Notes: generated by a model not told the origin, from the sequence alone. A DNA stretch of 64,000 bases from Eudoraea algarum (GCF_050589645.1 NZ_JBNGOQ010000003.1:392277-456276), one strand, 5' to 3'; positions 1 through 24,207 are shown, counted from the stretch's first letter. Translations and numbers: made by a program.

Positions 1-131
1 TGCACATCAGGGATATTATCAATTAAGTTTAGATGCTCATAAATGGTTACAGGTGAACGGTTAGGCGCATCTTCATATTTATCATATTCAAGTCCTTCAA
101 TGGTGCCCCCAGTAGTAATTATTTGAATCAT
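1..131 (-). CDS. Partial CDS (N-terminus only; gene runs off the left edge). The MIQIITTGGTIEG motif resembles the asparaginase/glutaminase N-terminal TGGTIAG signature.
   Basis: ATG at 129-131 on the minus strand, open reading frame to the window edge, TGGTI motif. Confidence 0.3.
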   Translation of the reverse strand, partial: MIQIITTGGTIEGLEYDKYEDAPNRSPVTIYEHLNLIDNIPDV

Positions 132-178
132 TTTGAATACTTTCTAGATTAAGAATGTGTATTTGTTTTAATTTAGAC

Positions 179-760
179 TTAATGCCAAAGCCTAAAAAGA
201 TTTACCAATAATTGGTCTACTACAAAAAGTAATGTCATAATACCAGCGATGACTAATACTCTTTTAGTTTTTGAAGTCAAAGATGAAATCTGATTATTGT
301 TAATCTTGATTTTATTAGTTAGAATAGCGAAAGCTTTTTGGATTTTTTCCTTATTAAAGTATAGAATCAAATTTAATAGTAAGAAATATAACATAGCATT
401 TGCTAATGCTCCTTTACTCTCTAAGAAGATAATATCAAAAACTATAATATTTACCATTATTGGCAATAGAATAAACACCCCTATAATTTTTGTTTTATTC
501 AATAATAAAAACCAAGCTCCTATGATTTGTAATATCCCTACGAATAGAATGTAGCCATAAGAATATCCCATAAATGTCCACGCAATATTGAAAGCACTAG
601 CATTCTCTAAAGTTATTGCAGCTACATCTTCAGGGAGTCTCCCTCTTCGATAAAACTGTCCACCCATTATTTTTCCGATACCATAGAAGTTCAGAAAACC
701 AAACACATACAAACGACATACTAATTCATATATTCTATTATCAATTTTGTTTAAAAACAT
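179..760 (-). CDS. DoxX-like integral membrane protein
   Basis: 193 aa with multiple hydrophobic helices; sequence resembles the DoxX family. Confidence 0.45.
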   Translation of the reverse strand: MFLNKIDNRIYELVCRLYVFGFLNFYGIGKIMGGQFYRRGRLPEDVAAITLENASAFNIAWTFMGYSYGYILFVGILQIIGAWFLLLNKTKIIGVFILLPIMVNIIVFDIIFLESKGALANAMLYFLLLNLILYFNKEKIQKAFAILTNKIKINNNQISSLTSKTKRVLVIAGIMTLLFVVDQLLVNLFRLWH

Positions 761-820
761 TTTTCTAATTACCTGTTAGATGATTTTTGTTCATGATTAA
801 GTGATGTTATAGGCTAAGAA

Positions 821-1874
821 TCAAAAGAAACGCCAATGAACCTTCCTTACTTTTAGAAGCTCTTTTCTGATTTTCTGCCATTCTACATCAGCGCTTTTTA
901 TATATTCATCTTCCTTTTTTAAAAACATATTCTTGACTCCGGATGACCAATTGAGGTATAATTTTCCGTCTGTAATTGACCAACTGTCTTGGGGCCTGCT
1001 TTCAGCACCGTATCCATTGCTTCCATGACCAGACATTCCATAAGCACACCACCCTCCATATTGGGGAGCATACTTTTCAGGATTAGCCTCGAATAAATCC
1101 CGATGCTCTTCGGAGGCAAATAACCAGGTAGCTCCATTCCATTTATAAGATGTATTCTTTTTACCCTTAGTTGCTTTCTCCAATTTGAAATAAGCTACAG
1201 GGTCGTAGCCCCCAATAACATAGCCATTACGTAATACCATAATTTCAGTGTCAGCCAATACCGGACGCATCTCATGACTATCATATGGGTCTTTAGACTT
1301 TAAACTTGGCCAGAATGTTTTTGCACCAGATTTAATATCTTTTCTAACTCTCGGCCATTGACTATCTGCATACTTAATTAGATTGGTCATTGCTTCTTTA
1401 TTTTTACTAAAATATTCCGCCCAATCGACCCTGTCTATGAGATACAATTTGTTTTTAAATATTACCCAACTGTCTTCTGGACGGGTCTGTGCACCAAAAC
1501 CTTCACCTCCGGCTCCTGCCATTTGTGTCAAAGACCAACCCCCGTATTGAGGAGAATAAGTAGTTGGGGATTTCTCAAAAAGTTCTTTATGCTCCTCTGA
1601 GAAAAAGCCAAGTTGCGTCATTCCATTCAACTTTAATGGATGCAAATCCTTTCTGAGCCTTATTTTGTTTAAAATATGCTACAGGGTCATAACCTCCTAT
1701 AGCATAACCATTCTCCAATATCATAATTTCTGAACTACCAAGATTTGGCTTCCAGTCGTCTCTGTCTTTAACAAATTCTTGGACAACAAAATCTTTTTTG
1801 ACTTTACTTTGAGCTGATATTATTATTGGAATATTAAAAGCCAGAAGCACAATTATCAATTTTATATTTCTCAT
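821..1874 (-). pseudogene. Secreted protein with three YHS-like repeats (GYDPVAYF...F.S.EH..LF...P..Y.PQYGGW), split into two ORFs (1587..1874 and 821..1645) by a +1 frameshift in an A5 run at 1603-1607.
   Basis: The upstream ORF ends ...ATWLFLRGA*. Removing one A of the run gives ...ATWLFSEEHKELFEKSPTTYSPQYGGW, which matches the later repeats; signal peptide MRNIKLIIVLLAFNIPIIISAQS. Confidence 0.5.
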
Positions 1875-2083
1875 ATCTGCATGTATTTACTGATTACAGT
1901 TATATAATAAGTAACTGGAGAAAGTATGAAATCACACTCTTATCTCTTTTTTGTAAAATTTTAACAAAAGTCTATACAGAAATGTAAATAGTGAAGCTTT
2001 CGGGATTTTAGCAGTATGTTCTATTGATTAAGACGTGCTTTTAAAATGATTTCAGAGCCTAAAAAATGAGTTGAAGGGAAAAA

Positions 2084-3052
2084 TTAGACTTGGTTTACCC
2101 ATCTTTTAGCTGCGTGCAGATAGGCACTAGGTTCCGAGTAACCTAATATGTATGCAATACCTTTTGTTTTAATGAGGTTTCCTTTTACTAAATAAATTGA
2201 AAGTTCCTTTCTAATATCGTCAATAATCCTTCTAAAGGACAAGCCTTCATCTGATAACTTTCTTTGGAAAGTCCTATCGCTTATCGGAAACTGCTTTGAT
2301 ACTTGTTCAAAATTTGGGGGTTCAGGGCAGCACATATTTAATATCATATTTCTAACCATCACAGAAAAAACTTTATTCTCAGCGTTTTGTAGAGAAAGCA
2401 TTTGTACAAACTTAGGCAACAAATATTCTATTTCTTTGGCACGTTTTGTATTTATTTCGGTAGTAAGAATGCTTTTGTTAAACTGTATGAGGTAGGCGTC
2501 TTCATATTCAACTTTGGTGTTTAAAAAACTAGAATATTCGCTAGTATCGTTATAAGGTAATTTCAGAGCAGGCAAAACACTATCACTTACCATAAGTTTA
2601 AGTTCTCTATAAATGAAACAAAATACGGTATCTAGAAGATGACTTTTTAGAATTTCATTTTTGATTGGGCTATCAAGACGAATTTCAAAACTGTTGTCAT
2701 ACTCTTTCGTAGTAAGTTCCACTATTGAAAATGATGTTGATAAGTATTGTTGCAATATAAATATCGCTTGCTCTATACTGGACGCGTTTAGAGATATTTC
2801 GGCTATAAACCCTAAAGACTTAATATTTAAGTAACAACCATAGTATAATCCAAAATAAGTATGCTTTACTTTTTGCGATAAAGTCTCAAAAACACTTAAA
2901 AACTCTTTATCACTTACATTATTTTCAGGGTTGTTGATATCCAACTCTTCATCATCTAAATATTGTCGCAGTTGCAATTCATTAGTTCCTAGATAGGAAC
3001 CGTAGTCAAATAAATTAGCTATATGTATTGCCGAAATTTTCATTGTTTGCAA
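2084..3052 (-). CDS. AraC family transcriptional regulator
   Basis: C-terminal AraC-type HTH (RTFQRKLSDEGLSFRRIIDDIR...LGYSEPSAYLHAAKRW). Confidence 0.7.
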   Translation of the reverse strand: MQTMKISAIHIANLFDYGSYLGTNELQLRQYLDDEELDINNPENNVSDKEFLSVFETLSQKVKHTYFGLYYGCYLNIKSLGFIAEISLNASSIEQAIFILQQYLSTSFSIVELTTKEYDNSFEIRLDSPIKNEILKSHLLDTVFCFIYRELKLMVSDSVLPALKLPYNDTSEYSSFLNTKVEYEDAYLIQFNKSILTTEINTKRAKEIEYLLPKFVQMLSLQNAENKVFSVMVRNMILNMCCPEPPNFEQVSKQFPISDRTFQRKLSDEGLSFRRIIDDIRKELSIYLVKGNLIKTKGIAYILGYSEPSAYLHAAKRWVNQV

Positions 3053-3126
3053 TACAAATATTGGCGTAAAATATCAATTAAACAAAAAAAGACACTTCTA
3101 TTTTTGTACCAATAAACATAAATATT

Positions 3127-3981
3127 ATGAACAAACTACAGAACACACTTTTGGCTAATGCCATATTCTCAGGAATGTCAGGAATAGGGCTTCTTTTATT
3201 TCACAAAGAGATAGCGGATATTTTTTCCGTTAATTCTAGTACTACTTTTTGGATAGTAGGAATTGCACTCATCTATTTTGCTTCGACCATTACTTACGAA
3301 ATCTTTAAACAAAGACCTATACCTATTTTATTTATAATTATTCAAGACATATTATGGGTAATAGGCAGTATAATTTTACTTGTATCACAACCATTCGGCA
3401 TCTCCATTACAGGAAACTATATAATAGCTGCAATTGCATTAATCGTCTTTTTTATGGCTATTGCTCAATCTAAAGCTTTGTCCAAAGTTGACACTATAGA
3501 TGCAGACGGAAAAAAGCGATTACGCTTTAAAACAATATTCAATGCCAATGGAACAAAAGTATGGAAAGTAATATCTGATGTAGGAAATGTTTATAAAGTA
3601 GCACCAAATATTGATGATTCATCTATCGTTTCCGGTAATGGAGAGGGGATGATTAGAAGTTGTTCACATGGAAAGGATAGTTGGACAGAGACCTGCTCTT
3701 TGTGGAAAGAAGAAGAGGCCATATCGTTTGTGGTTCATACAGATAAACCAGACTATCCGTACCCATTATCTTTTCTACAAGGAGCTTGGTACATAAAGGA
3801 AATAGATAGCAACAATACTGAAGTAGAGATGATTTTTGATTTAAAATTTAAGAATAAACTACAAAATCTGTTTGTCTACCCTCTAATGAAATTCAAGTTT
3901 GGCAAATCATTCAATGTACTACTAGATAATTGGAAAGCTATTATTGAAGAACATAGCAATGGGAGCTGGTTTTTCGCATAA
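3127..3981 (+). CDS. Membrane-anchored SRPBCC (START/polyketide cyclase-like) domain protein
   Basis: About four N-terminal TM helices, then an SRPBCC-like C-terminal domain (WKVISDVGNVYKVAPNI...); a canonical Bacteroidetes -7 box TATTTTTG lies about 27 nt upstream. Confidence 0.45.
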   Translation: MNKLQNTLLANAIFSGMSGIGLLLFHKEIADIFSVNSSTTFWIVGIALIYFASTITYEIFKQRPIPILFIIIQDILWVIGSIILLVSQPFGISITGNYIIAAIALIVFFMAIAQSKALSKVDTIDADGKKRLRFKTIFNANGTKVWKVISDVGNVYKVAPNIDDSSIVSGNGEGMIRSCSHGKDSWTETCSLWKEEEAISFVVHTDKPDYPYPLSFLQGAWYIKEIDSNNTEVEMIFDLKFKNKLQNLFVYPLMKFKFGKSFNVLLDNWKAIIEEHSNGSWFFA

Positions 3982-4503
3982 TAAAGTGTACAAAAAATCA
4001 TCCAAAAACACGAAACAAATACTTTTTAACCAGCTCCTTAAGGAAAATGAAGGAATTTTATCTAAGGTGGTCAATCAATTTATTGCGAGTGAATATGATA
4101 GAAAAGATTTTAAACAGGAGATAATTTATCAATTATGGAAATCTTATGATTCATTTAGTGGTAGGTCCAAATTCAGCACTTGGATGTATAGGGTATCTTT
4201 AAATACTGCGCTTAAATATCTTAAGAAAAAGAAAAAGATAATTTCAAGTATAGGGATTGATGAGAACTTACTTCAAAAAATTGATGTAAAGCATACGAGA
4301 TTGAGGAACAAACAAAACTGATGTACGAGGCGCTATACAAATTAGATAAAATAGAAAAGGAGATGCTACTCTTATATTTAAAAGGATTAAAGCAGAAAGA
4401 AATTGCTCAAATAATGGGTTTTACGACCACCAATGTTGGAACCAAAATTGGGCGAATAAAATTAAAATTGAAAAAAATGGTTGCAAGGCAAGAATCAAAT
4501 TAA
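3944..4503 (+). pseudogene. ECF-type RNA polymerase sigma-70 factor, paralog of 10848..11339, split into a region-2 ORF (3944..4321) and a region-4 ORF (4321..4503) by a 1-nt deletion in an A run at about 4288-4290.
   Basis: Alignment to the intact paralog: restoring gtaaaagca gives ...IDVKAYEIEEQTKLMYEALYKL, colinear with ...TDVSDNTEEQQIEKLYETIKRL; the FSGRSKFSTWMYRV motif is conserved. Confidence 0.5.
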
Positions 4504-4621
4504 AGACTGTTCACTAAAAAATACCAGTAATAATAGAATACTGAATTTAAATGATTCAGTCAAAATGTGATTTTTAAATAGAAACTCATACCAATACATA
4601 TGAATCACATATTTATAAAAA

Positions 4622-5920
4622 ATGAAAGAATTTAAAAACATAAATACTATCCAAAAAATAAGCATAGTATTTATTGCTATAGGTGCAATGAGCATTTTTC
4701 CTGAGCACGGTACTTGGTTTCATAAAACATTGCAAACCCTATTTGTAGTAGGACTATTATTTTATATATATCCCATAAAAAGGAAAATGTTTAACTCTAA
4801 AATAAAAAAAACAACACTCATATTAATTTTCAGCATAGGTAGTATGGGGCTCAATGCACAAGATTATTCGGAACAAATTGAATCTTTTAACCTGAGTTTT
4901 GATGAAAAAGATTTGGGTAAGGTAAACAAACATTTAAGTAGCGAATTGAAGTTCGACCCTATTCCTGCTTCTAAGACTCCTATGATTATGAAAAATATAG
5001 TCACTAAGTTACCTAAACTAAATAGTATAAAAATAATTGAAAGTGAGAAAGGAAAGGCTAAAGTAAAGTATGATTTTGTAGGCTTAGGAATTAGGGAATC
5101 TCGTATTCACTTTGACGAAGAAGATAAGATTACAAAAATTGAACTAATAGAAAATCCTATCAGACAAGAGATGGAAGCTCAAAAAGCGATGAAGAAAAGC
5201 ATGCAGCAACCAAATACCAATGGCTTATCCAGTAAGTTTGAGAAAATTCAGTTTAAATCTATAGATAACCTAATGGTAACTGGGAATTTATATGAAATTT
5301 CTAAGGAAAATCCAATAATCTTGCTATGCCATCAAGCCGGTTACAATAAGTTTGAATACGCAGATATAGCGCCCCGTTTAAATCAATTAGGCTTCAATGT
5401 TTTAGCAATCGACCAACGTGCAGGAGGTGAATTTGCTGGGCATAAAAATGAAACTAACACACTAGCTAAGCAAAAAGGGTACACCAATCTTGATTTTTTA
5501 GATGCTGAACAAGATATAATTACGGCTATAGACTACCTTACTAATAGATACAGTAAAAAAATTGTATTATGGGGAAGTTCTTATTCTTCGAGTTTAGCTT
5601 TTATTATCGGAATGGAGAATGAAAATGTTATGGCTAGTATAGCCTTCAGTCCTGGCAACTATTTTGGCGACAAAAGACCTTTATTAGAAAATGTTCTTTC
5701 GAAGTCTAAGAAACCTTTTTTTATTACCTCTTCCAAGAATGAGGCACAAGAAATTAAACGTCTTCTTTTAAAAGATGTTCCTAAAGGAAAGGAAAGGATA
5801 CATTTCACGCCTAATTCCGAGGGATTTCATGGTTCTAGAGTTTTATGGGTTGGACAAACAGGAGCGGAAGAATATTGGTCTCAAATAAGGTCTTTTCTAG
5901 ATAATTATCGTAAGATATAA
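4622..5920 (+). CDS. Alpha/beta hydrolase (dienelactone hydrolase-like), secreted. The likely true start is 4787 (MFNSKIKKTTLILIFSIGSMGLNAQ signal peptide).
   Basis: C-terminal hydrolase fold (LLCHQAGYNKFEYADIAPRLNQLGFNVLAIDQRAGGE...WGSSYSS); in-frame ATG at 4787 precedes a signal peptide. Confidence 0.5.
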   Translation: MKEFKNINTIQKISIVFIAIGAMSIFPEHGTWFHKTLQTLFVVGLLFYIYPIKRKMFNSKIKKTTLILIFSIGSMGLNAQDYSEQIESFNLSFDEKDLGKVNKHLSSELKFDPIPASKTPMIMKNIVTKLPKLNSIKIIESEKGKAKVKYDFVGLGIRESRIHFDEEDKITKIELIENPIRQEMEAQKAMKKSMQQPNTNGLSSKFEKIQFKSIDNLMVTGNLYEISKENPIILLCHQAGYNKFEYADIAPRLNQLGFNVLAIDQRAGGEFAGHKNETNTLAKQKGYTNLDFLDAEQDIITAIDYLTNRYSKKIVLWGSSYSSSLAFIIGMENENVMASIAFSPGNYFGDKRPLLENVLSKSKKPFFITSSKNEAQEIKRLLLKDVPKGKERIHFTPNSEGFHGSRVLWVGQTGAEEYWSQIRSFLDNYRKI

Positions 5921-5998
5921 CTAGGCCAAAATAATGCTGTTCCAAATATGAAAACTATAGAACAGCAAGAATAATCATTTTTAAATATCCTTAGTCTG

Positions 5999-6940
5999 AT
6001 GAAGCATTTAGCTTTGCAATTATTATTCTGTTTTCTTATCATTTTCACCTCCAATGCTCAAAATGATATCCTAAATAGTAAGGTTTATGAACTGGATAGT
6101 TCAAGTTCACTTCTGTCAAGAATAGGAGAAACACCTTCGAAAATACTTGATAGATTTAGAGATGCTGGTATGAATCCTTCCAGACATACACTCACTAGGG
6201 AAGAACATAAAATAGTGTCTTCTGCATTAAATGAATTACCTCCTTTGCATCAAAGGGTACTGAAAAAACATTTGTTGAGAATAAGTTTTTTAGATAATAT
6301 GCCCAATACTGCGTTTACAGCACCTATAAGCCCAAATGATTCTATAAAGCTATACGCAATTACCGTCAGAGCTGAAATTTTAAACCAAACCGTATCAGAA
6401 TGGCTTACCGAAAAGGAACGCAATTGTTTTGATTTTTCAAATACTAATTTAAATGTATCTATTAGAGCCGGCGAGCTAAGTGCAATCTTGTATGTATTGA
6501 TTCATGAGGCTACTCATATTGTTGATGGAGCTTTGAACTTAACACCTCAATATACCGTTCCACAAAGGGAAATAGAAAATTCTTTAAAATCTAACCCATT
6601 TACGGCGAACATTTGGAAAAATAGGATTGAACCTATTGAAATATTTCAAAATAAGATGTTAGACGAAATTTACTTTAAAAGCAGAAAGAAAATGCCCATA
6701 AACAAGTCTCAAGAAATATATGGTGCACTTAAAAATTCACCTTTTGTTTCTTTGTATGGACGTAACAGCTATCATGAAGATTTGGCCGAAATTGCGACTA
6801 TATATCATTTTACCAAAAAGTTAAAACAAGAATATCAAATAGTAATTGCTAAAGGGAACTCTAAATTATTCTCATATGAACCTATGAAGTCTATGCTTGT
6901 AAAAAATAGACTTCCTCAATTAGAATATTTCTATTTATGA
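5999..6940 (+). CDS. Secreted hypothetical protein with an HExxH motif (LIHEATHIVD); putative zinc metallopeptidase-like
   Basis: Signal peptide MKHLALQLLFCFLIIFTSNAQ; HEATH motif. Confidence 0.4.
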   Translation: MKHLALQLLFCFLIIFTSNAQNDILNSKVYELDSSSSLLSRIGETPSKILDRFRDAGMNPSRHTLTREEHKIVSSALNELPPLHQRVLKKHLLRISFLDNMPNTAFTAPISPNDSIKLYAITVRAEILNQTVSEWLTEKERNCFDFSNTNLNVSIRAGELSAILYVLIHEATHIVDGALNLTPQYTVPQREIENSLKSNPFTANIWKNRIEPIEIFQNKMLDEIYFKSRKKMPINKSQEIYGALKNSPFVSLYGRNSYHEDLAEIATIYHFTKKLKQEYQIVIAKGNSKLFSYEPMKSMLVKNRLPQLEYFYL

Positions 6941-6955
6941 CATTTAGTTTCGTTA

Positions 6956-7711
6956 TCAAAAAGACATAATCTCACCATCATCTGGAATTAATATTCTATC
7001 TCTTTCTACACCATTTTTATCAGCATATAGCCTCAATGATTCCCTAGTTACTCTACAAAAGTCTATAGCCTCCAAATGGACTGCAACTAATTTAGAATTA
7101 GGAGAAAGCTTAGATAATTCAATAGTTTGTTTTTCGTCCATATGTACAGGATAATCTTCAAAATTCGGGATGATTCCACCACCTGAATTAGTCACTATAA
7201 GCTCTGGTGAGAATTTTTCCACGGCATTTCTCACTTCATCAATTAAGATACTATCACTCACAATATAAACAGTGGGTTCCTCTTTAGCCTGTATTACATA
7301 TCCAGAAACTTGCCCCATATGAGGTAGGATTGGGCCACTCCCATGTTGTCCGGCTATTCTGGTAATAGATAGGCCCTCCCATTCCAGTTCTTTTTGAATC
7401 ACACTTACATTATTGAAATGCTTAATCATAAAACTCTCATCTTCTGGTGTACAGAAGAGTTTTGTGTCTTTAGATAAGGTCTTGATTGCTTTTTCATCTA
7501 GGTGGTCAGGATGTAAATGAGTAATCAAAATTCCATCTAAGTTTTCTATTATTTCAGAAATTAACATTGTTAAATTGACAATCGGATTTTTTTGTAAGCC
7601 AGGAGCGAATGGAGGGAAAGTTTCTTTGATACTGAACATGGGGTCAATTAGTAAAACTTTGCCAGCATAGTTCAATTTTAAAGTTGCATTACGGATTAGT
7701 TGAAGTTCCAT
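6956..7711 (-). CDS. MBL-fold metallo-hydrolase
   Basis: HxHxDH motif (ITHLHPDHLD). Confidence 0.7.
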   Translation of the reverse strand: MELQLIRNATLKLNYAGKVLLIDPMFSIKETFPPFAPGLQKNPIVNLTMLISEIIENLDGILITHLHPDHLDEKAIKTLSKDTKLFCTPEDESFMIKHFNNVSVIQKELEWEGLSITRIAGQHGSGPILPHMGQVSGYVIQAKEEPTVYIVSDSILIDEVRNAVEKFSPELIVTNSGGGIIPNFEDYPVHMDEKQTIELSKLSPNSKLVAVHLEAIDFCRVTRESLRLYADKNGVERDRILIPDDGEIMSF

Positions 7712-7725
7712 AGTCGTTGTTATGT

Positions 7726-8748: not shown

Positions 8749-8749
8749 G

Positions 8750-10156: not shown

Positions 10157-10242
10157 TTTTACTTAAATTTTGATATTAATTATCTATTACAGCTTACGAT
10201 AGAAGCTATTTTTTTGTTCTTATTTGTAAATTTTATTTCTAT

Positions 10243-10842: not shown

Positions 10843-10847
10843 TTCAG

Positions 10848-11339: not shown

Positions 11340-11400
11340 TCAGAAAATGGATTGTTTATTTTATTAGTATTACAAAGTCTAAAAAAATCACAATTAATAC

Positions 11401-11930: not shown

Positions 11931-12100
11931 CATCAACCACCATCAATCAAAAAACATATTGCAGTTTTCTTTTTTAATAACTTTATCTTTTTTGTTTATA
12001 AAGTGTTCACAGAATTAAAAAAGAGTAACATTATATTATAGCTTCATAATATGAATATTTTAAAGATATCTTGCTTGTGTTTGCATTCCAACTTAAACTG

Positions 12101-13249: not shown

Positions 13250-13315
13250 TTTATCTTAAGTGAAATTGTGAAGAAGAAATGGGAGCCAAAATAGCCCCAA
13301 ATTCAAAGTTGTTTA

Positions 13316-14137: not shown

Positions 14138-14329
14138 ATTTTTCTTTTTTTCTATGTTTTATAATTTTCTTTTTTTCTATACTTAAATAGAAGACAAGTA
14201 TATTTTGAACAAACATAGCCGCTTAAATTTTCGCTACATTATTTATGTGGACAATGGGGAAATTTGATTAAGCATAAAGAATGAAGAGTGGTAATCGGGA
14301 AATATGGGGTAAATGGGAACTTTTTTTTG

Positions 14330-16084: not shown

Positions 16085-16267
16085 ATCAATATCAATTTTA
16101 CTTAATAAAACCTAATTAAAGATTAATAGCTCGAACTTAACATAAAAAATACATTTAGTTTTCATTGTTGCCTCTTGAATTTCATAAAAACCTTTTGATG
16201 CACCCTATATGAAAAATGAAGTCTGGAGATTTTTTTAGAGAGCTTCTGGATAATTTTTCAAACCGAA

Positions 16268-16768
16268 TCAGAAAAGTAGTTTTTTAACTTTTTCAAGAAA
16301 CAATTCAACGGCAACACCAAAGCCCAATTCGTCGGGTTCTATAAATAATCGGATTTTCCTATGAGGAGAAGAAGAATTTTCATAGTCAACATCAAAAATA
16401 AGAACTTCTGGGACTATTATTGATAATTTGGTAGTTTCGAAGAATCCGATTTCCCGAAATCTATCTTGTTGTATACTCCAAATACCACTATTGGAATATA
16501 CTGTATCATTTCTAACAAGTCGGTACTCCATGTTGTTGAAGTCATTGAAACTAAAATTACCCAAATTCCCAACCTCATCAACTACTGCAAGTCCATTAAG
16601 TCCATTTTCAATAAACTCACCATAAAATGACTTGATTTGCACAACTTCCCATTGTCCGATAAGGAAATCAACATCATTTTGGAGGTCATCTGGTCGGCAG
16701 GAAGCAAAACAAAAAATCAGCAGAGCCATTATAGAGGGTAAGCTGCGATATAAAATTTTAAAGTTCAT
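16268..16768 (-). CDS. Lipocalin-like lipoprotein, hypothetical
   Basis: Lipobox LIFCFASC; 166 aa. Confidence 0.35.
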   Translation of the reverse strand: MNFKILYRSLPSIMALLIFCFASCRPDDLQNDVDFLIGQWEVVQIKSFYGEFIENGLNGLAVVDEVGNLGNFSFNDFNNMEYRLVRNDTVYSNSGIWSIQQDRFREIGFFETTKLSIIVPEVLIFDVDYENSSSPHRKIRLFIEPDELGFGVAVELFLEKVKKLLF

Positions 16769-16965
16769 TCTTTTTCTTTTTATGGTGCACCAGTATTTGT
16801 ATTCTGAATTGACAGAAAATCACATATTTTCATTTTTCTTGAGAATATCGATGTATTTATACTCCTCAGAAAAGTTAAAATTTTAAAGAGGTCAGATTTT
16901 TTTTGGTATTATTTATCCTTACCGGGAACTAATGGATATATAGATTAATCTTAAAAGTATAAAGT

Positions 16966-17400
16966 ATGAAATCTAAAAAAAATGCTCACTTATTTTTGAT
17001 ACTAAGCTTGTTACTAATTACAGGATGTAATAATGAGGATGATTCAAATTCAACTAAGATAAACCCTGTTCCATTGGTCTTCAATGGGGATTTTGATTCA
17101 GATAAATCTAAACTAGACGATTTGTTAAATGATATTAAAACTATATCCAGCAGTGTAATTTGAACTACATCCGAGGATTGGCTTATTACTCCTATCGGGA
17201 CAAAATCTTGTGGAGGTCCATCAGGATATTTGGCATATTCAAAGAAAATCGATATGTCACTTTTTGCAGAATATGTTGAGATTTATAGAATCAGTGAGGA
17301 TATATTCAATAGGAAATGGGAAATTATATCCACTTGTGATATTGAACCAGAACCGATTGGAGTTAAGTGCGAAAATGGGACTGCTATATTAGTATTTTAA
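16966..17400 (+). pseudogene. Lipoprotein gene interrupted by an in-frame TGA at 17161-17163. The same frame stays open for 79 more codons (TTSEDWLITPIGTKSCGGPSGYLAY...ENGTAILVF*).
   Basis: Lipobox LLITGC; no start codon downstream of the TGA; a 79-codon open frame in roughly 30% GC DNA is unlikely by chance. Confidence 0.4.
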
Positions 17401-17459
17401 AGTGCAATAGTTATATGAAGAATATATTAATTAGGTTTTTTATTAATATACCTGGTCAT

Positions 17460-17822
17460 CTAGGGTTTTGGTAATCTCGGATAAAACTGTACTAGAGTAT
17501 CCTTTCGTTCGATTAGCATGATTTTACATTCATCTACAGAAGATACGCGATGGTTAATTCCTTTTTGAACTACAAATAAGTCACCGGTATTCATATAAAA
17601 TGCCTTTGATGATTCTATTTCCATTAATAGCTTTCCTTCTAATAAATAGAACAGCTTGTCACTGTTTTCGTGATTGTGCCATGGAACTTTATCTCCTTTT
17701 ATCTTAACCACTTTAATATACTCATTATTAAGAGAGGCAATAATCTTAGGTGAGAACCAATCTTCTAGCAAGTGTGATTCATATAGTGCGTTCTTATTGA
17801 TATTTGACTTTTTCACAACCAA
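17460..17822 (-). CDS. Cupin domain protein
   Basis: WHNHENSDKLFYLLEGKL cupin motif. Confidence 0.6.
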   Translation of the reverse strand: MVVKKSNINKNALYESHLLEDWFSPKIIASLNNEYIKVVKIKGDKVPWHNHENSDKLFYLLEGKLLMEIESSKAFYMNTGDLFVVQKGINHRVSSVDECKIMLIERKDTLVQFYPRLPKP

Positions 17823-17939
17823 TTAGTTAATGTTCATATCAAAAAATCACAGCATACATTTATTATATCTTTTCTAAAAACTAAAAAGTGTGATTTTATT
17901 TCCTCAAACTAAACTAATGAGATTGATAAGATTGGATAT

Positions 17940-18395
17940 ATGAATATTCGGAGTGCAACATTACAGGATAAAGAGAAGATTATTGAACTAGTGAAAACTG
18001 GGCTCAAAGAATTTGGGTTTGAGTACTCATCCACAACTTCAGAGTTAGACCTAGAGGACTTTGCCGAGGTTTACTTAAACATTGAAAACACTTTTTTAAT
18101 TATGGAAACTTCTCAGGGTAAATTGGCAGCTACCGGTGCATTACTAAAAGAAAGAAATCATGATAGTTATAAAATCCAGAAAATGTATGTTTCCAAAATG
18201 TATAGAGGACTAGGGTACGGTAAATTAATGCTGGAGCAATTTATACAATTAGCAAAAAGTAATAAGGCTCAAATTATTTTATTAGAAACTTCCAATCATA
18301 TGAAAACTGCTATTGGTTTATACAAAAGTTACGGTTTTAAAGAAACCTGTGTGATTCCTAAATCTCCTCGTTACAATATTACAATGACAAAATAA
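17940..18395 (+). CDS. GNAT family N-acetyltransferase
   Basis: YRGLGYGKLMLEQFIQLAK acetyl-CoA binding motif. Confidence 0.7.
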   Translation: MNIRSATLQDKEKIIELVKTGLKEFGFEYSSTTSELDLEDFAEVYLNIENTFLIMETSQGKLAATGALLKERNHDSYKIQKMYVSKMYRGLGYGKLMLEQFIQLAKSNKAQIILLETSNHMKTAIGLYKSYGFKETCVIPKSPRYNITMTK

Positions 18396-18469
18396 ATATG
18401 ATTTTTTGTGATTTTATACAAAAACTACATACTAATAGGGCAAGAAAAATATTTTAAATCTAAAAAATT

Positions 18470-18574
18470 ATGAATCAGAATAAGACAATTACGACATCGA
18501 AAACAGTAAATAGAATCTTACTTTTTATTTTGAGCGCTATAGGATTTGCACTATGGTTTTGGTTATTCACCTAA
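18470..18574 (+). CDS. Small single-TM protein (34 aa, MNQNKTITTSKTVNRILLFILSAIGFALWFWLFT), immediately upstream of the XRE HTH gene
   Basis: Below the ORF-track size cutoff; a GTGATTTT motif lies about 55 nt upstream; 15-nt gap to the HTH gene. Confidence 0.25.
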   Translation: MNQNKTITTSKTVNRILLFILSAIGFALWFWLFT

Positions 18575-18588
18575 AGGATTTTTAAAGT

Positions 18589-18786
18589 TTGATGATTAAT
18601 CGAATAAAAGAGTATCGAAAGATTAATAATTTTTCACAACAAAAATTAGCTTCAATACTTAATATTTCAAGACAAACACTTTCTAATATAAAGAATCAAA
18701 AGCAGGTTCCCTCTTTGATAATAGGACTTAAATTATCAAGAGTATTTAGTGTAGATGTTAATGGGCTTTTTCAACTAAAACCTTAG
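18589..18786 (+). CDS. XRE-family (YozG-like) helix-turn-helix transcriptional regulator
   Basis: 65 aa; HTH QQKLASILNISRQTLSNIKN. Confidence 0.6.
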   Translation: MMINRIKEYRKINNFSQQKLASILNISRQTLSNIKNQKQVPSLIIGLKLSRVFSVDVNGLFQLKP

Positions 18787-18791
18787 GAATA

Positions 18792-19502
18792 ATGAGAGTT
18801 TTAGGACCAATTGGTGGTATTAGTTGGGTGTCAACAAGAGATTATTATATACAAATAAATAAAGGAATAAATGCACAATTAGGCAATCTAAACTACGCTG
18901 AATGCATGATTTATTCTTTTAATTATCAGAAAATTAAAGATAATAATGATGCAAATGATTGGAATTCCACTTTGAAGATGGTCGTTATTGCTTCAAAAAA
19001 ACTGGAAAAAAGCGGTGCCAAGGGTATAGTCCTTTGTGCAAATACAATCCATTTTATTGCTGACCAAATTGGAAAAGAAATTAATATTCCTATAATTCAT
19101 ATTGCTACATCTACAGCTCTAGAAATCAAAAGAAATGGATTGAGAAAGATTGGTCTTTTAGGAACAAAGTTTACGATGGAATATGATTTTTTCAAATCTA
19201 AACTAGATGAGCAAGGAATAGAAGTGTTGATTCCGAAAAGTATTTCAAATAAGGAATTTATTCATGATACTATCTTTAGCGAACTGGGAAAAGGCATAAT
19301 CAGAACAAAAACTAAAGAGAAGTATTTATCAATTATTAAAGAATTAATAAATGATGGAGCTGAAGGAATTATAGCAGGATGTACAGAGATACCGCTGTTA
19401 ATTAAAGAATCTGATATTTGATTGCCTTTTTTTGATACAACCAAAATTCATGCCGAAGCCGCCGTAAAATTTGCTCTATCTGATGAAAAAACTACCTCAT
19501 AG
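18792..19502 (+). pseudogene. Aspartate/glutamate racemase family protein (YgeA-like), truncated by an in-frame TGA at 19419-19421. The conserved C-terminus (LPFFDTTKIHAEAAVKFAL) continues in frame to a TAG at 19500-19502.
   Basis: Both catalytic motifs are present (VLCANTIHF...; GCTEIPLL). The post-TGA peptide matches the canonical racemase C-terminus (..LPVFDTAAIHAEDAV..). Confidence 0.55.
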
Positions 19503-19532
19503 TTTTTGTAGAATAATATAAAAAAGGTTTAT

Positions 19533-20435
19533 ATGAAAATGAAGCAATTAGTTGATGAGAAATTTAATTCATTGATAAAACTAATAGTTTTTAGCTTTAT
19601 TATCGGTATTTCCGCTAACTCTTGTATCAATCAGAGTTCGAAAAATAAGAATAATCAAATGAATGTAATGGACAGCACAGAAACCAAGGAAAATATACTT
19701 TTTATTCATGGATTTCCAATGAGTTCTTCTATATGGAAATCTCAAGTAAGCGCTTTAAATAAGGATTATAATTGCTATGCAATTGATTTACCCGGATATG
19801 GTAAAAACTTGAGTCAATACGAGTTCAATCACTCTATAAACTCATATTCCGATTATGTTTATCAATATATTAATGATAATAACCTTGCTCCTGTACATAT
19901 AGTAGGAATGTCCATGGGAGGGTCTATAACGTTAAATATGTCTCGTCGTTATAATAACATTCTGAAAAGTATGACCGTAATACATACTAGTGCTATAATA
20001 GATACTGATGAAGATAAGAGGAAAAGAGATATTACGATTGCTGGTATTGAAAAAGGTGGATTATTGGAGTTTATTGATGACTTTGCCGACCGTTTATTAA
20101 GCCCAAAATCAAAGGATGAGATAAGACAGAAATATATTTGTCAAATGCGTGAAGCCTCTCAGGAAGTTGTTATTGCTGGTTACAAAGCCATTCGAAATAG
20201 AGAAGATGAATCATCTAACCTTTCAAATTTAAAAATCCCTGTTTTAGTGGTTGCTGGGAATGATGACATAGGTTCTACGCCTGAAGAAATGAAAGAAATT
20301 GCAGAGGCTATACCAAATTCAACTTTCAAAATTATATCAGACTGTGGACATGTTGCTCCTTTAGAACAGCCACAAAGATTAAATGAAATTCTTTCTGAAT
20401 GGTACAATAATATAATAAATGTGGAGAAACCTTAG
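19533..20435 (+). CDS. Alpha/beta hydrolase
   Basis: HGFPMSSSIWKSQV...; GMSMGG nucleophile elbow. Confidence 0.6.
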   Translation: MKMKQLVDEKFNSLIKLIVFSFIIGISANSCINQSSKNKNNQMNVMDSTETKENILFIHGFPMSSSIWKSQVSALNKDYNCYAIDLPGYGKNLSQYEFNHSINSYSDYVYQYINDNNLAPVHIVGMSMGGSITLNMSRRYNNILKSMTVIHTSAIIDTDEDKRKRDITIAGIEKGGLLEFIDDFADRLLSPKSKDEIRQKYICQMREASQEVVIAGYKAIRNREDESSNLSNLKIPVLVVAGNDDIGSTPEEMKEIAEAIPNSTFKIISDCGHVAPLEQPQRLNEILSEWYNNIINVEKP

Positions 20436-20484
20436 TGTAGGTATAAACTACCCCAAGATAGTTTAACTCAAAATAAAATATACT

Positions 20485-20895
20485 ATGCAAAAATTAACGG
20501 TAACCTTTAGTGTAATACTTTATGCTATTGCAGTTCCGTATCTGGAAATAAATAATACACATGTATTTAATCCAGATTGGACACCTCATGTTAGAATTCA
20601 CGAAGTTTGGCAACTAATTACTAATTCTGTTATTGGAGTATTGTGCCTCTGGTTGGTTTGGAAGAAGAGAGATAAATGGATATCTACACTCCTTAGCATG
20701 TTTATTACTGGAGGTTTTTTAGTAGCTTATATGTTGAAAGAAACATATGGAGGCTCCATGAAGTATCTAGACGGAAGTGAAAAAACTTTAGCTGGAATTA
20801 ACATTGGAGTTCTGGGCTTTGGAGTTGCTTTTTTACTTTTAAGTATTACGTTATTTATTAGTGCAAAAAAGAGAAATAAAATGAAACAACATTAA
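20485..20895 (+). CDS. Hypothetical membrane protein
   Basis: About four hydrophobic helices. Confidence 0.35.
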   Translation: MQKLTVTFSVILYAIAVPYLEINNTHVFNPDWTPHVRIHEVWQLITNSVIGVLCLWLVWKKRDKWISTLLSMFITGGFLVAYMLKETYGGSMKYLDGSEKTLAGINIGVLGFGVAFLLLSITLFISAKKRNKMKQH

Positions 20896-20943
20896 GAAGA
20901 GAACAGAGTATGTTACAAGTTACACTAATGATGAATTGAAATT

Positions 20944-21438
20944 ATGATGTATACACCAGCAGATGGTTTCCCTTATTATTTTGACTTGGTTAATGGTGAT
21001 AGCTTACAAACACTTTTTACTACAATATCAACTTTCGATTTTTTAAAATCAATTCCTGAGGATAGAGTCATATACCGCTATGAACCCAATAAATGGAGTA
21101 TAAAACAAATAATAGGACATATAACCGACCATGAAAGAATAAAAATGTTCAGAGCATTTCAGTTAAGTAGAAATGAGAAAACACAATTATGGGGTTATGA
21201 CCAAGATTTTCTTATTAACCAAAGTCGTTTTGATGATTTGGAAATGCAACTTTTACTAGTCGATTTTCTAAATGTTCGGAAAGCATCTATAAGTTTTATT
21301 GAAACCTTATCGGAAATTCAATTAAAAAATACAGGCTGGGCTAAAGATTATGAAATTACGCTTGAAGACTTTCTCAAATCAATTATTGGACATGAGTTAC
21401 ATCACTTAAATATTATCAAAGAAAAATACTTATTATAG
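20944..21438 (+). CDS. DinB/YfiT-like family protein
   Basis: DinB_2-like histidines (IIGHITDHERI...IIGHELHHLNII). Confidence 0.5.
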   Translation: MMYTPADGFPYYFDLVNGDSLQTLFTTISTFDFLKSIPEDRVIYRYEPNKWSIKQIIGHITDHERIKMFRAFQLSRNEKTQLWGYDQDFLINQSRFDDLEMQLLLVDFLNVRKASISFIETLSEIQLKNTGWAKDYEITLEDFLKSIIGHELHHLNIIKEKYLL

Positions 21439-21493
21439 TAGAGATTAAAAAAAGTAAATGAAAGAAAAGAAATAGAGTCTCAAGAAATAAAAA

Positions 21494-22189
21494 TTATAAT
21501 ATTTTAAGCAAATCACTGGGGGTTTCAATTTCAAAATCAGGTCTATATGTCCACGCTCTTGTGTCAGCACTGCTGTATTTTGCAGTAACAGCAATTACTT
21601 TACTATTATTATCTAATTTCATTTCAATATTTCTTGCAAATTCAATATCACCTTCATGGTCTCCTATATAAATAATAGTTTTGTTAGCGGTATTTTCGAA
21701 TATTTGCTGTAAACATTTTATTCCGCCAAAAGGAATTGGTTTTTGATAATTATTTGGGATATCATTATAACCAATAATTGAGTTGAACTTATCAAGTAAG
21801 CCATTTTCCTTTAAAACACATTTAATGTTATCCGATGCATTTTGAGAGCAAATACCCTGGGGTACATGAATTTTACTTATAGTATGTTTAATATCAGAAA
21901 ATAACTTTACAGGGATTGTGTTTTTAAGCTGATATTCTGTCCATAAAGCCCCAGCTTCAATCATTTCAACCTCGGACATTCCGTAATAATTTATATATAA
22001 ATCTTGCCAATTTTTAGATTGATGATTGGCAATATGGTACGAATCTTCACTTTTTAAGGCATCTGGTAAGTTTTCTCCTGTTAGCCTAGGTGTTACTACT
22101 GAAAGAATCTCCTTGGTAATATCAATATTCTTTGGAACTGAATTCACTAATGTTCCGTCAAAATCCCATAGCACTGCATCAACATTCAT
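21494..22189 (-). CDS. HAD family hydrolase
   Basis: Motif I DFDGTLVNS. Confidence 0.65.
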   Translation of the reverse strand: MNVDAVLWDFDGTLVNSVPKNIDITKEILSVVTPRLTGENLPDALKSEDSYHIANHQSKNWQDLYINYYGMSEVEMIEAGALWTEYQLKNTIPVKLFSDIKHTISKIHVPQGICSQNASDNIKCVLKENGLLDKFNSIIGYNDIPNNYQKPIPFGGIKCLQQIFENTANKTIIYIGDHEGDIEFARNIEMKLDNNSKVIAVTAKYSSADTRAWTYRPDFEIETPSDLLKIL

Positions 22190-22222
22190 AAATCATTAGT
22201 TATAATTTTTTTTAAAATAAGA

Positions 22223-23152
22223 CTATTGATTTATTTTAATATTGGTTAACTTGTAAAAAGGATAATCAACATTCTCTTTTACACATTCCTCAATTATATA
22301 ATCTACCAAGTAATATTTTTCGTTGAGGTTATCTTTTTCATAATCTAGTTGCAATGAAGACTTGGCTTCATAGGGAAATTTGGAAAGTAACCCTATAGAA
22401 GTTTGTATATCCATTTCAGACAAATCTATTCCTTTTATTGAGGCCAGTTTTCTCAGTTCGTACATCATATTCTCTAGGGACAACATTAGTTCTACATCAA
22501 TAAGAAGTTCTCCAAATGTTACATTGTAGGCCGTAGTAATAGCTGCCACCGGCGCAACAAAAAGATACTTTTTCCACAAAACTGTTTCCATATCTTTTAC
22601 AAATGATATATCAATTTCTGCATCCTTAAAAACCTTAATTAAAACTTCATGTGTTTTTAGCAAATTGCCTCCTATAAAGATTTTACCTGGTCCTCCTAAA
22701 TGTTCAACATAACCTGGTTTTTTTATGTTAGATGCTACATAAATGCATCCATCCAAAATGTTGAACTCATTATTACCAAAGTTTTCAATTATAACTTCTT
22801 TGGCGTTGACCATATTTTGCAAAGTTATGATGGTGCTATGCGTATCTAAACAACTTCTATAGCTGTTTATGGCATCTATTAGTGAAAAGGATTTCGTGGT
22901 TACCAATAAAACATCTAAAATTCCTATTTCTATTGGATTATCGGAAACTAAATGAGGACGAACATTTTCAATCTTATCTCGGGATTTGATTGTGAGTCCA
23001 TTTTTTACAATTTCTTCTTTTGTGTCTCCTCTGCAGATAAAAATGATTTCGATATCATTTTCATTTTCAGGATAGTAGTGTTTTGCCAACGGTGCACCAA
23101 CAAAACCACCAATTCCACCAATTCCAAGTATTCCAATTCTCATTTTAATCAT
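22223..23152 (-). CDS. panE: 2-dehydropantoate 2-reductase (ketopantoate reductase family)
   Basis: N-terminal Rossmann MRIGILGIGGIGGFVGAPLAK and ApbA/PanE-like length and architecture. Confidence 0.65.
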   Translation of the reverse strand: MIKMRIGILGIGGIGGFVGAPLAKHYYPENENDIEIIFICRGDTKEEIVKNGLTIKSRDKIENVRPHLVSDNPIEIGILDVLLVTTKSFSLIDAINSYRSCLDTHSTIITLQNMVNAKEVIIENFGNNEFNILDGCIYVASNIKKPGYVEHLGGPGKIFIGGNLLKTHEVLIKVFKDAEIDISFVKDMETVLWKKYLFVAPVAAITTAYNVTFGELLIDVELMLSLENMMYELRKLASIKGIDLSEMDIQTSIGLLSKFPYEAKSSLQLDYEKDNLNEKYYLVDYIIEECVKENVDYPFYKLTNIKINQ

Positions 23153-23603
23153 ATTAAGTTTTGAATAAAGACAAGCTTCACTTTTTGATAGTAGTGAAGC
23201 TTGTTAGATGCAGAAAGGGCAAAATAAAGTATTTGTAAATTCATTATATTCTGCGCAAAATTCTAAAGTCTTACTATATAATTAGTATTAATTGGATTTC
23301 ATTTATCACAAAAATTTATTGATTTTTTTTACTCCAATTGGTTACAGCCAACTTTTCCATTTCCGCCTCATTGCTTAACCACGGCACGATAGTATTAAAT
23401 GGTTTCCCTTCCCAAAAATCATTATAAAACAAGTATAGTTTACCATTGCGAAAGCGCAATAACCATTAAATTATACTCAAACTAGCTCATAACTTTAATT
23501 TTTCCTGTATGTCAAAATGATTTTTTGACTTTTTTTATCTGAGAGTTAGCATTAGATTTATAATTAGTCTGTTTTCATTTTCTTTTATGTCTAGAATTAA
23601 TTG

Positions 23604-24197: not shown

Positions 24198-24207
24198 TGC
24201 TAATAGT

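Follow-up and report, generated by a model that had tools for sequence, protein, structure and literature searches.

The question raised by this locus is whether the AT-rich DNA at the beginning of the window (by which we mean the whole analysed stretch of 64,000 nucleotides of Eudoraea algarum) is foreign to the genome and, if so, where it ends and what it carries. It is very likely that positions 1-23,690 make up most of a strain-variable genomic island of 29.9 kb, with the AT-rich part horizontally acquired and apparently forming a self-contained regulon. We regard the island as real and recently acquired, by a kind of horizontal transfer that is well documented and ordinary.

Eudoraea algarum is a seaweed-associated bacterium. 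For E. algarum 2-473A(T) a genomic G+C content of 45.2% has been published (PMC12313589), and the window departs from this value in two steps:

1..23690, no strand: AT-rich block, 32.5% GC, GC3 0.28, delimited by composition, its left edge being located about 690-880 bp outside the window
23691..29184, no strand: intermediate-GC block, 41.6% GC, GC3 0.47, lacking in both the conspecific strain and the related MAG

The first-pass annotation had described a block of about 30% GC against about 45%, and the contrast stands, although the figure of 30% was slightly low: GC content is 32.5% in positions 1-23,690 (and also in 1-23,500) versus 45.5% in 23,501-64,000, and maximum-likelihood segmentation placed the main GC change-point at 23,690 (LLR 536). 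Codon usage follows the same division, as GC3 is 0.15-0.36 (mean 0.28) in all 28 ORFs of the AT-rich block and at least 0.40 in every ORF to the right of it (backbone mean 0.51), ranges that do not overlap. Tetranucleotide z-scores correlate at 0.25-0.30 between island and backbone, compared with 0.49-0.72 between backbone segments. GC, GC3 and tetranucleotide usage are all non-uniform along the window, and both base composition and codon usage of the block are atypical for the genome, as in genomic islands. When the DNA was extended leftwards, a GC change-point was found at -876, with 42.5% GC upstream of it. The left end lies outside the window as had been proposed, yet by only about 690-880 bp (change-point -876, end of homology at about -688).

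The extent of the insertion is seen from the conspecific strain GCA_947494825.1, in which the left flank (-9821..-690) aligns at 99.31% and the right flank (29184..36853) at 99.28%. This strain lacks everything from window position -688 to 29,184, which gives the strain-specific insertion a length of 29.9 kb, made up of a 24.4-kb AT-rich block and a 5.5-kb block at 41.6% GC. At the same spot it carries 2.16 kb instead, in which a single KAP NTPase gene is located. The stretch from 23.7 to 29.2 kb, with genes for two DinB and three SRPBCC proteins, a 292-aa sigma-70-family protein and an AraC regulator, is not backbone and belongs to the same strain-specific insertion. Accordingly, the position around 23.6 kb is a compositional seam within the insertion and not its end. 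The earlier placement of the right end at about 23.2-23.6 kb, at a promoterless gene remnant, was correct for the remnant and wrong for the end, as the insertion continues to 29,184. The remnant itself is 70% identical to residues 122-165 of the YHS protein encoded at an Allomuricauda MAG locus (L029):

23328..23459, minus strand: YHS C-terminal remnant of 44 codons without a start codon, at the seam of the AT-rich and intermediate-GC blocks

Other genomes agree with this delimitation. The related MAG has an empty site where the flanks are joined directly and the ABATE gene is adjacent to tRNA-Arg; its backbone proteins at the locus are 67-91% identical to those of the window, and the 23691..29184 block is missing there. 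The AT-rich block is present in GCA_038077475.1 (strain 3-367, a close relative of the window strain), within a 678-kb contig. At one and the same locus, the block is thus present in the window strain and in GCA_038077475.1 and absent from another strain, while the MAG has an empty site, and no conservation in syntenic position across relatives was found. The island (-688 to 29,184) lies in a variable hotspot, bounded by an ABATE/zf-CGNR gene on one side and by tRNA-Arg(ACG) on the other.

The AT-rich block corresponds to a syntenic gene cluster in other Flavobacteriaceae, with 33-36% GC in every genome seen. In the related MAG the cluster is found at a different locus (L027; 33.8% GC), with at least 16 shared genes at 59-83% amino acid identity. 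Another copy (L035) has 33.5% GC and up to 93% amino acid identity, a third (L034) lies on a contig with 36% GC over its whole length, and that of the Allomuricauda MAG (35% GC) is located beside a tyrosine integrase and tRNA-Asp, beyond which follows dnaE at 45-49% GC. The cluster includes a trio of genes kept in L027, L029, L030, L031 and L035, which is 88.5% identical to L035 at the nucleotide level versus 65-70% for the remainder of the cluster:

12101..16084, minus strand: conserved trio, consisting of the following three genes
14330..16084, minus strand: TPR-LytTR regulator
13316..14137, minus strand: DUF1330 protein, 273 aa
12101..13249, minus strand: haloalkane-dehalogenase-like lipoprotein

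Ahead of the DUF1330 gene, the intergenic DNA likewise contains sequence blocks conserved across five genomes. Judged from this synteny, the cargo of the AT-rich block appears to be a coherent conserved cluster and not a miscellany. The block is very likely a horizontally acquired copy of a cluster circulating among marine Flavobacteriaceae, which has about 33-36% GC in all hosts seen; it shows no drift to the 45% of the host and is already losing genes. Acquisition from a low-GC Bacteroidetes donor had been suggested earlier. The acquisition is supported by composition and by absence in the conspecific strain, and a low-GC flavobacterial source is plausible, because the syntenic clusters have 33-36% GC and one contig is at about 36% throughout. 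No donor with more than 93% protein identity was found, and the nearest complete clusters are 59-87% identical.

Two features near the right junction bear on the route of entry:

29356..29430, minus strand: tRNA-Arg(ACG), 3' end facing the insertion, with the same tRNA at the MAG empty site and in the island-free strain
29186..29202, plus strand: 17-nt exact copy of the tRNA-Arg 3' end, GTGACCTCGACAGGATT, att-core-like, marking the right junction

Genomic islands are often placed next to a tRNA gene, and here 170 bp separate the right junction (29,184) from the tRNA-Arg(ACG) 3' end, with the 5.5-kb intermediate-GC block lying between the AT-rich block and the tRNA. It is possible, if rather doubtful, that the insertion is a decayed integrative element, mobilisable, conjugative or phage-like, which used the tRNA-Arg 3' end as its att site and has lost its integrase and left att. 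Such an origin would bear on how the island entered and does not conflict with its horizontal acquisition. It would account for an insertion ending at the 17-mer, which occurs twice (at 29,186 and inside the tRNA) against 0.07 expected, and three copies of which bracket the alternative KAP NTPase insert of the island-free strain. The truncated genes at both edges, and the integrase and tRNA-Asp next to the Allomuricauda cluster, point the same way. Against it, the left junction has no copy of the 17-mer at or near it within 3 mismatches, and thus no direct repeat; the repeat is also found at the MAG empty site and so is older than the insertion; the Allomuricauda locus likewise yielded no att repeat; and tblastn with the integrase from that locus gave no match, and hence no integrase remnant, from -9.8 to 64 kb. 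Pfam annotation of all ORFs over the same range revealed no integrase, transposase, relaxase or phage gene. As it stands, the insertion is not an integrative conjugative or mobilisable element, as no integrase, relaxase or conjugation domain is present in any of its ORFs, nor is it a prophage or phage-like island, since its Pfam annotation consists of metabolic and regulatory genes only. The two likeliest routes for the horizontally acquired island would be transfer from another strain followed by recombination in the conserved flanks, or a tRNA-targeting element since left without an integrase.

Among known systems, the closest are the tRNA-associated genomic ('fitness') islands, with which the insertion shares its atypical composition and codon usage, its presence and absence among strains, its size of about 30 kb, its position beside a tRNA whose 3' end recurs at the junction, its accessory cargo and the different cargo in another strain. 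Unlike these, it has no mobility gene and no direct repeat at the far end, and it is a composite of two blocks. It also resembles Bacteroidota tyrosine-integrase elements such as the Allomuricauda locus, being low-GC DNA adjacent to a tRNA in a higher-GC host, and the two have in common genes for a PanE-like reductase, YHS, AraC, TPR-LytTR and DUF1330 proteins and hydrolases. In contrast to that locus, where the integrase is beside tRNA-Asp, the window has no integrase and the neighbourhood is that of tRNA-Arg. Conjugation or mobilisation genes were seen in neither.

We consider it improbable that the segment is ancestral, having been deleted in GCA_947494825.1 and relocated in the MAG lineage, with the low GC being intrinsic to the cluster. 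The homologous cluster elsewhere in the related MAG and the AT-richness of the cluster in every genome seen would agree with this. The same is true of the right flank, where the island-bearing 3-367 is nearer to the island-free strain than to the window strain (informative sites 40 vs 14 and 7), as would fit a recent loss. The island itself has diverged little between 3-367 and the window strain, which may instead reflect divergent DNA imported into the flank. Against an ancestral segment, the site is empty in the outgroup MAG, whose own copy, at a different locus, is 59-83% identical versus 67-91% for the flanking backbone proteins. Moreover, with a GC3 of 0.28 the block has not moved towards the host value of 0.51, and the island-free strain has other cargo, with att-like repeats around it, at the same place. 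A misjoined low-GC contig or contaminant in the E. algarum assembly can be dismissed almost entirely despite the abrupt GC change and the existence of homologous clusters in low-GC genomes that seem to come from one collection of isolates. Two strains that were assembled independently and are distinguished by single-base changes (window and GCA_038077475.1) share the same junctions, proteins identical to those of the island are recorded on contigs of three different lengths, and homology to the island-free strain stops at the left compositional edge.

The acquired cluster is likely to bring its own regulation:

10848..11339, minus strand: intact ECF-type sigma factor, 163 aa (Sigma70_r2 E 6.7e-12, Sigma70_r4_2 E 2.5e-9)
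10243..10842, minus strand: membrane protein, 199 aa, candidate anti-sigma factor, immediately downstream of the sigma gene
1911..1936, minus strand: motif copy upstream of the YHS gene
4566..4591, plus strand: motif copy upstream of a 432-aa hydrolase
11367..11392, minus strand: motif copy upstream of the sigma gene
11730..11755, minus strand: motif copy upstream of a 99-aa DUF1330 gene
16799..16824, minus strand: motif copy upstream of a 166-aa lipoprotein gene
17826..17851, minus strand: motif copy upstream of the cupin gene
17889..17914, plus strand: motif copy upstream of the GNAT gene
18407..18432, plus strand: motif copy upstream of a 34-aa membrane ORF and the XRE gene

The sigma factor has regions 2 and 4 only, as is typical of the ECF group. 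The 199-aa membrane protein always adjoins the sigma gene and, at 79-83% identity, ranks with the most strongly conserved cluster proteins; it is a candidate anti-sigma factor and has no family match or recognised anti-sigma domain in Pfam or NCBIfam. A recurrent upstream motif belonging to the island had been noticed previously, and this was borne out: a search with the pattern TGTGATTT-N16-AC gave 8 sites in the window, all within the island (1.9-18.4 kb), against 0.19 expected. The eight copies form a bipartite promoter-like motif, TGTGATTT-N14-ATACTAAT, and each is upstream of a gene. At motif positions 29-30, which are outside the search pattern, A is present in 17/17 sites and T in 16/17. 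The motif is found upstream of the sigma and DUF1330 orthologues also in L027, L034 and L035, with the sigma-gene motif in the same position. It differs from the flavobacterial sigma-A box TAnnTTTG and from the CGT-containing ECF box of Flavobacterium psychrophilum (PMC9723704).

Because a motif copy precedes the sigma gene, autoregulation of the intact sigma factor through the island motif is suggested by the sequence. A promoter-like motif shared by the sigma gene and other genes is characteristic of ECF regulons, and we infer that the island sigma factor reads TGTGATTT-N14-ATACTAAT. The cluster would then function as a self-contained regulon, in which the sigma factor is paired with the adjacent putative anti-sigma membrane protein and eight putative cognate promoters head the transcription units. 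These units seem to encode mostly hydrolases with a signal peptide or lipoprotein signal and small redox or detoxification-type proteins, and the cargo may serve in a cell-envelope stress or detoxification response. The arrangement is similar to autoregulated ECF sigma/anti-sigma regulons in its small sigma factor (regions 2, 4), the co-oriented membrane protein directly downstream, and the fixed-spacing bipartite motif before the sigma gene and genes of exported proteins. It differs from them in that the partner has no recognised anti-sigma domain and that the sigma factor and its putative targets are all confined to one transferable block.

The TPR-LytTR regulator has a C-terminal LytTR DNA-binding domain (E 2.7e-11), as do LytTR regulators in general, and a long N-terminal region with TPR repeats and no receiver domain, which sets it apart from classical two-component response regulators. 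It adjoins the DUF1330-hydrolase pair, genes possibly under its control.

Pfam and NCBIfam matches in the AT-rich block agree with the families listed by the first-pass annotation, namely TPR-LytTR, AraC, XRE, MBL-fold, MDR-ADH, GNAT, cupin, DinB and HAD, in addition to two DUF1330 copies and two ECF sigma paralogues, one of them frameshifted. The list was wrong in adding a haloalkane-dehalogenase-like protein to four alpha/beta hydrolases, as the total is four with this protein included. Several disrupted genes and partial decay had also been proposed, and five broken genes were indeed found, comprising the YHS remnant at the seam and the following:

-359..131, minus strand: asparaginase-like gene, frameshifted, with its 5' part at 1..131 and the remainder before the window start
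821..1874, minus strand: YHS-domain gene with a frameshift near 1600, to which the intact 350-aa L027 orthologue aligns in two frames
3944..4503, plus strand: second ECF sigma paralogue, a pseudogene with a frameshift near 4300 (125 + 60 aa)
16966..17397, plus strand: lipoprotein gene with an in-frame stop at codon 66

The sigma pseudogene and the intact sigma gene make up an inverted repeat (pair I1), and the pseudogene is split identically in GCA_038077475.1.

Alignment with related genomes indicated that the window strain of Eudoraea algarum carries 29.9 kb of DNA, from -688 to 29,184 (negative coordinates denote DNA to the left of the window start), that is strain-specific. A 98% identical relative of the ABATE protein lies on GCA_947494825.1 (locus L033), which aligns with the window at 99.31% from -9,821 to -690 and at 99.28% from 29,184 to 36,853 with just 2.16 kb in between, and is therefore a strain of the same species without the entire insertion. 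The 2.16-kb interval contains a single gene, for a KAP-family NTPase. In a MAG labelled 'Saonia sp.' (GCA_049670505.1), whose glutamine synthetase III shares 91% identity with the one in the window, the locus L032 is an empty site. The order there is aldo-keto reductase, 277-aa protein, ABATE/zf-CGNR, tRNA-Arg(ACG), Na/Ca exchanger, GS and GSIII, the proteins on either side share 67-91% identity with their window counterparts, and nucleotide alignment brings window positions -789 and 29,081 together with about 80 bp between them. Synteny of the gene nearest to the tRNA (445 aa, 29,824-31,161) was dropped as a test for empty sites, since its homologues at 18 loci in other Flavobacteriaceae (50-72% identity) had neither a neighbour gene nor the tRNA in common with the window. 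Exact protein matches link the window to a second carrier of the island, strain 3-367 (GCA_038077475.1), whose proteins are named 'Flavobacteriaceae bacterium 3-367' / Eudoraea algarum; its record shows single-base differences from the window, so the window represents another strain of the species.

The first-pass annotation had interpreted the low-GC left part of the window as a horizontally acquired island and proposed looking for its absence from related genomes; the block is indeed absent from the island-free strain, and the MAG offers the empty site. Both the observation and the interpretation are correct with three amendments, namely that the insertion extends over 29.9 kb up to the neighbourhood of tRNA-Arg, that its AT-rich part is a conserved flavobacterial cluster equipped with a sigma factor and candidate promoters, and that mobility genes are absent. 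The locus does not represent a new kind of element but adds a well-supported case to the known strain-variable genomic islands of tRNA-linked hotspots. It provides a fully bracketed case of recent gene gain within a species, in which the occupied site can be compared both with a site that holds other cargo and with an unoccupied one.

The compositional contrast between the left block and the right side of the window, at first estimated by eye, held in GC, GC3 and tetranucleotide profiles. In 1-kb steps, GC was 29-39% at 1-23 kb, 39-51% at 24-46 kb, 52-59% at 46-51 kb and 36-48% beyond. Maximum-likelihood segmentation placed the strongest change-point in the window at 23,690 (LLR 536), with 32.5% GC in 1-23,690, 41.5% in 23,691-29,891, 45.5% in 29,892-45,882 and 56.9% in 45,883-50,796; the genome of the E. 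algarum strain 2-473A(T), an isolate from the surfaces of macroalgae, has a G+C content of 45.2% (PMC12313589). All 28 ORFs of the AT-rich block had GC3 values of 0.15-0.36 (mean 0.28) and every ORF to the right of it had at least 0.40, the means being 0.47 at 23.6-29 kb, 0.51 in the backbone and 0.72 in the SusC/D pair. Tetranucleotide z-scores of the block correlated with those of the backbone at 0.25-0.30, compared with 0.49-0.72 among backbone segments. For the left side, 9.8 kb of sequence was taken from the 3-367 record (contig JBBVGS010000004.1, 678 kb; locus L021). GC is 42.5% from -9.8 to -0.9 kb and the left change-point falls at -876, so the AT-rich block measures about 24.4 kb and, as had been supposed, ends outside the window, by only 0.7-0.9 kb. 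The right end of the island had been placed at about 23.5 kb, but this position is instead a seam within the insertion, as the island-free strain lacks all DNA up to 29,184. The strain-specific 29.9 kb consists of the AT-rich block and a block at 23.7-29.2 kb with 41.6% GC, and the features at and beyond the seam are:

23,328-23,459: C-terminal YHS remnant of 44 codons with no start codon, at the seam
23,604-28,998: intermediate-GC accessory set with two DinB, three SRPBCC (one double-domain), a 292-aa sigma-70-family protein and AraC

The accessory set is absent from both the island-free strain and the MAG. Its 292-aa sigma-70-family protein has region 2 only, together with a match to HTH_16. 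In an Allomuricauda MAG (L029), the YHS gene corresponding to the remnant is the first of an operon that continues with AhpC, a 177-aa gene and a PanE-like gene, and compared with this arrangement the window copy has lost the start of the operon. The left edge is marked by a 112-aa membrane-protein fragment and a frameshifted asparaginase-like gene.

The neighbourhood of tRNA-Arg(ACG) is a hotspot of variable DNA in the E. algarum lineage, and two features lie at the right junction:

29,186-29,202: exact 17-nt copy of the tRNA-Arg 3' end, coinciding with the right junction
29,356-29,430, minus strand: tRNA-Arg(ACG), with the right junction 170 bp from the tRNA 3' end

In the island-free strain the 17-mer occurs in three copies, one of them mismatched, on either side of the KAP NTPase insert, and the 154-bp unit that separates 17-mers is present twice, a pattern that is the hallmark of repeated site-specific integration at tRNA-Arg. 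For the present insertion, however, three facts count against this route. The empty site of the MAG has a 15/17 copy of the extra 17-mer, which therefore predates the insertion; the left junction showed neither an att repeat nor a copy of the 17-mer; and between -9.8 and 64 kb there were no detectable genes for an integrase, transposase or relaxase, no phage genes and no integrase remnants. Nor was an att repeat of tRNA-Asp detected in the Allomuricauda locus. The KAP-family NTPase of the island-free strain (L033 7,481-9,720, corresponding to window position ~29,184) is a full-length match (E 1e-155) to PDC-S20, a candidate defence family of PADLOC. Near the right junction we also observed a sharply hypervariable patch at 29,081-29,114, where the window strain and 3-367 differ at 12 of 34 positions, directly left of a terminator-like hairpin at 29,128-29,161.

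Between the window strain and 3-367 we counted 22 differences in 1-23,690 (0.93 per kb), 4 in 23,691-28,900 and 110 in 29,901-47,640 (6.2 per kb); at the flank rate, 147 would be expected in the first interval (Poisson P ~8e-38). When three genomes were compared over the right flank, 40 sites united 3-367 and the island-free strain against the window but only 14 united the two island carriers against the island-free strain, indicating that the history of the island is unlike that of the flank. It is possible that the flank of the window strain holds imported divergent DNA, and its private differences do cluster at 31-33 kb; it is also possible that the island was passed between strains or lately lost from one of them. 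We therefore did not take the low number of differences to mean that the island postdates its flanks, because the flank differences clustered at 31-33 kb may be imported DNA. Between 31,000 and 33,000 there are 22 substitutions private to the window strain at which 3-367 and the island-free strain agree, which suggests an imported recombinant tract in the flank.

The genes assigned to the AT-rich block by the first-pass annotation were recovered with Pfam and NCBIfam. The NCBIfam matches used to name the hydrolases and other enzymes were all under the curated cut-offs. Four alpha/beta hydrolases are present, and the haloalkane-dehalogenase-like protein that had been counted separately is one of the four. 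At least nine products begin with a signal peptide or lipoprotein signal according to inspection of the translations, including three of the four hydrolases, a 273-aa DUF1330 protein, a YHS protein and a 313-aa protein. No PADLOC match was obtained among the island proteins tested. The suggestion that the block is partly disrupted was also sound, as five broken genes were identified, namely the YHS remnant at the seam and four others:

Left edge: asparaginase-like gene, frameshift
821-1874: YHS gene, broken by a frameshift
3944-4503: second sigma paralogue, frameshift, identically split in 3-367
16,966-17,397: lipoprotein gene, in-frame stop

The 3' end of the cupin gene has a one-base deletion in the window strain relative to 3-367.

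Relatives of the TPR-LytTR protein were found at 86%, 67% and 62% identity, followed by many at about 50%, in Flavobacteriaceae. The MAG with the empty site carries, on a different contig (L027, 33.8% GC), at least 16 genes of the block at 59-83% identity and largely in the same order, and the common stretch extends from the PanE-like gene to a 193-aa membrane protein, the two ends of the window block. The most similar gene order, from PanE to a 432-aa hydrolase, is that of L035 (GCA_947500545.1; 33.5% GC). The sigma-factor part occurs at 60-87% identity in L034 (GCA_947503285.1), on a contig of about 36% GC throughout, unrelated neighbour genes included. Part of the cluster is present in the Allomuricauda MAG at 31-39% GC, where it adjoins a tyrosine integrase and tRNA-Asp, followed by dnaE at 45-49% GC. 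Judged from these alignments, the AT-rich block is a conserved flavobacterial cluster that is AT-rich wherever found: in two or more hosts of higher GC it stands out as a compositional island, and in at least one genome of low GC it resembles its surroundings. Window 12,134-16,278, with the genes for TPR-LytTR, the 273-aa DUF1330 protein and the dehalogenase-like protein, is 88.5% identical in nucleotides (86-93% in amino acids) to L035 9,831-13,980, compared with 65-70% nucleotide identity for the rest of the cluster; the island is thus a mosaic, which implies exchange of modules between cluster variants. No closer donor was found in genome, metagenome or protein collections, and a metagenome scan with the dehalogenase-like protein gave a single short contig at 70% identity.

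The cluster is conserved yet uncharacterised, and it encodes a sigma factor of its own and has a candidate promoter that is well defined. These offer an experimental handle on the cues to which the exported hydrolases, DUF1330 and YHS proteins respond on algal surfaces. A recurrent upstream motif had been noted in the island, and it proved real: the pattern TGTGATTT-N16-AC has 8 occurrences in the 64 kb, where 0.19 would be expected, always between 1.9 and 18.4 kb, and all eight copies are intergenic and oriented towards the downstream gene. Seven of them lie 25-37 nt upstream of an ATG and that of the cupin gene about 85 nt upstream of a start inferred from the orthologue. The consensus built from these eight sites and nine of L027 and L029 is TGTGATTT(T)-N13/14-ATACTAAT, and positions 29/30, which lie outside the search pattern, are A in 17/17 sites and T in 16/17. 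The motif differs from both the flavobacterial sigma-A box TAnnTTTG and the CGT-type ECF box of F. psychrophilum (PMC9723704). It stands upstream of the intact ECF sigma gene (10,848-11,339) and of the neighbouring DUF1330 gene, two positions kept in L027, L034 and L035, and in about 0.55 Mb of other fetched loci it was found only in those bearing the cluster, apart from one match in L032. Directly downstream of the sigma gene is a 199-aa four-helix membrane protein in which no domain was recognised; it is among the best conserved of the cluster (79-83% identity), and we infer a putative role as the anti-sigma partner. The exported products fit an extracytoplasmic-function regulon.

In the intergenic region between TPR-LytTR and DUF1330 (14,138-14,329, minus strand), TTCCC-rich blocks, GTTCCCATTTACC... 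and TTCCCCATTGTCCACAT, are conserved in five genomes, and E. algarum has a tandem 24-nt A-rich repeat directly before the start codon. These blocks and the repeat may be regulator binding sites. When the conserved blocks were used to derive a repeated LytTR-type site, the pattern search performed no better than chance.

We consider it possible, if rather doubtful, that the AT-rich block is a portable, self-sufficient regulon that moves as a unit among seaweed-associated Flavobacteriaceae. It would comprise the ECF sigma factor with the adjacent membrane partner and, before at least eight cargo units, a promoter code of its own, TGTGATTT-N14-ATACTAAT, and its own transcription specificity would keep it expressible in any host. 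Recombination would proceed by module, as the nearest relative of the TPR-LytTR, DUF1330 and dehalogenase-like genes differs from that of the rest of the cluster, and a GC content that stays at 33-36% while that of the hosts ranges over 36-45% would reflect continual exchange and not residence in one genome.

Other parts of the window also showed variable or atypical DNA. Relative to the MAG there is a second insertion at 29,641-32,753, present in all three E. algarum strains, which holds a 432/445-aa and a 444-aa gene in convergent orientation; neither belongs to a Pfam family, and nested inverted repeats lie between them at 31,189-31,317. The SusC/SusD block at 45.9-50.8 kb has 57% GC and GC3 of 0.70-0.74, and is flanked by direct repeats of about 200 bp, in pieces 71-89% identical and with a partial third copy:

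45,506-45,710: direct repeat
51,159-51,291: direct repeat
51,617-51,823: direct repeat

One possible explanation is a second compositional island, in this case GC-rich; another is duplication of a regulatory region. At the edge of the SusC/SusD block, 45,725-46,486 contains three long overlapping ORFs on both strands, candidate coding sequences only, one of which has GC1 of 0.82; the record calls here a predicted 229-aa minus-strand gene of no family.
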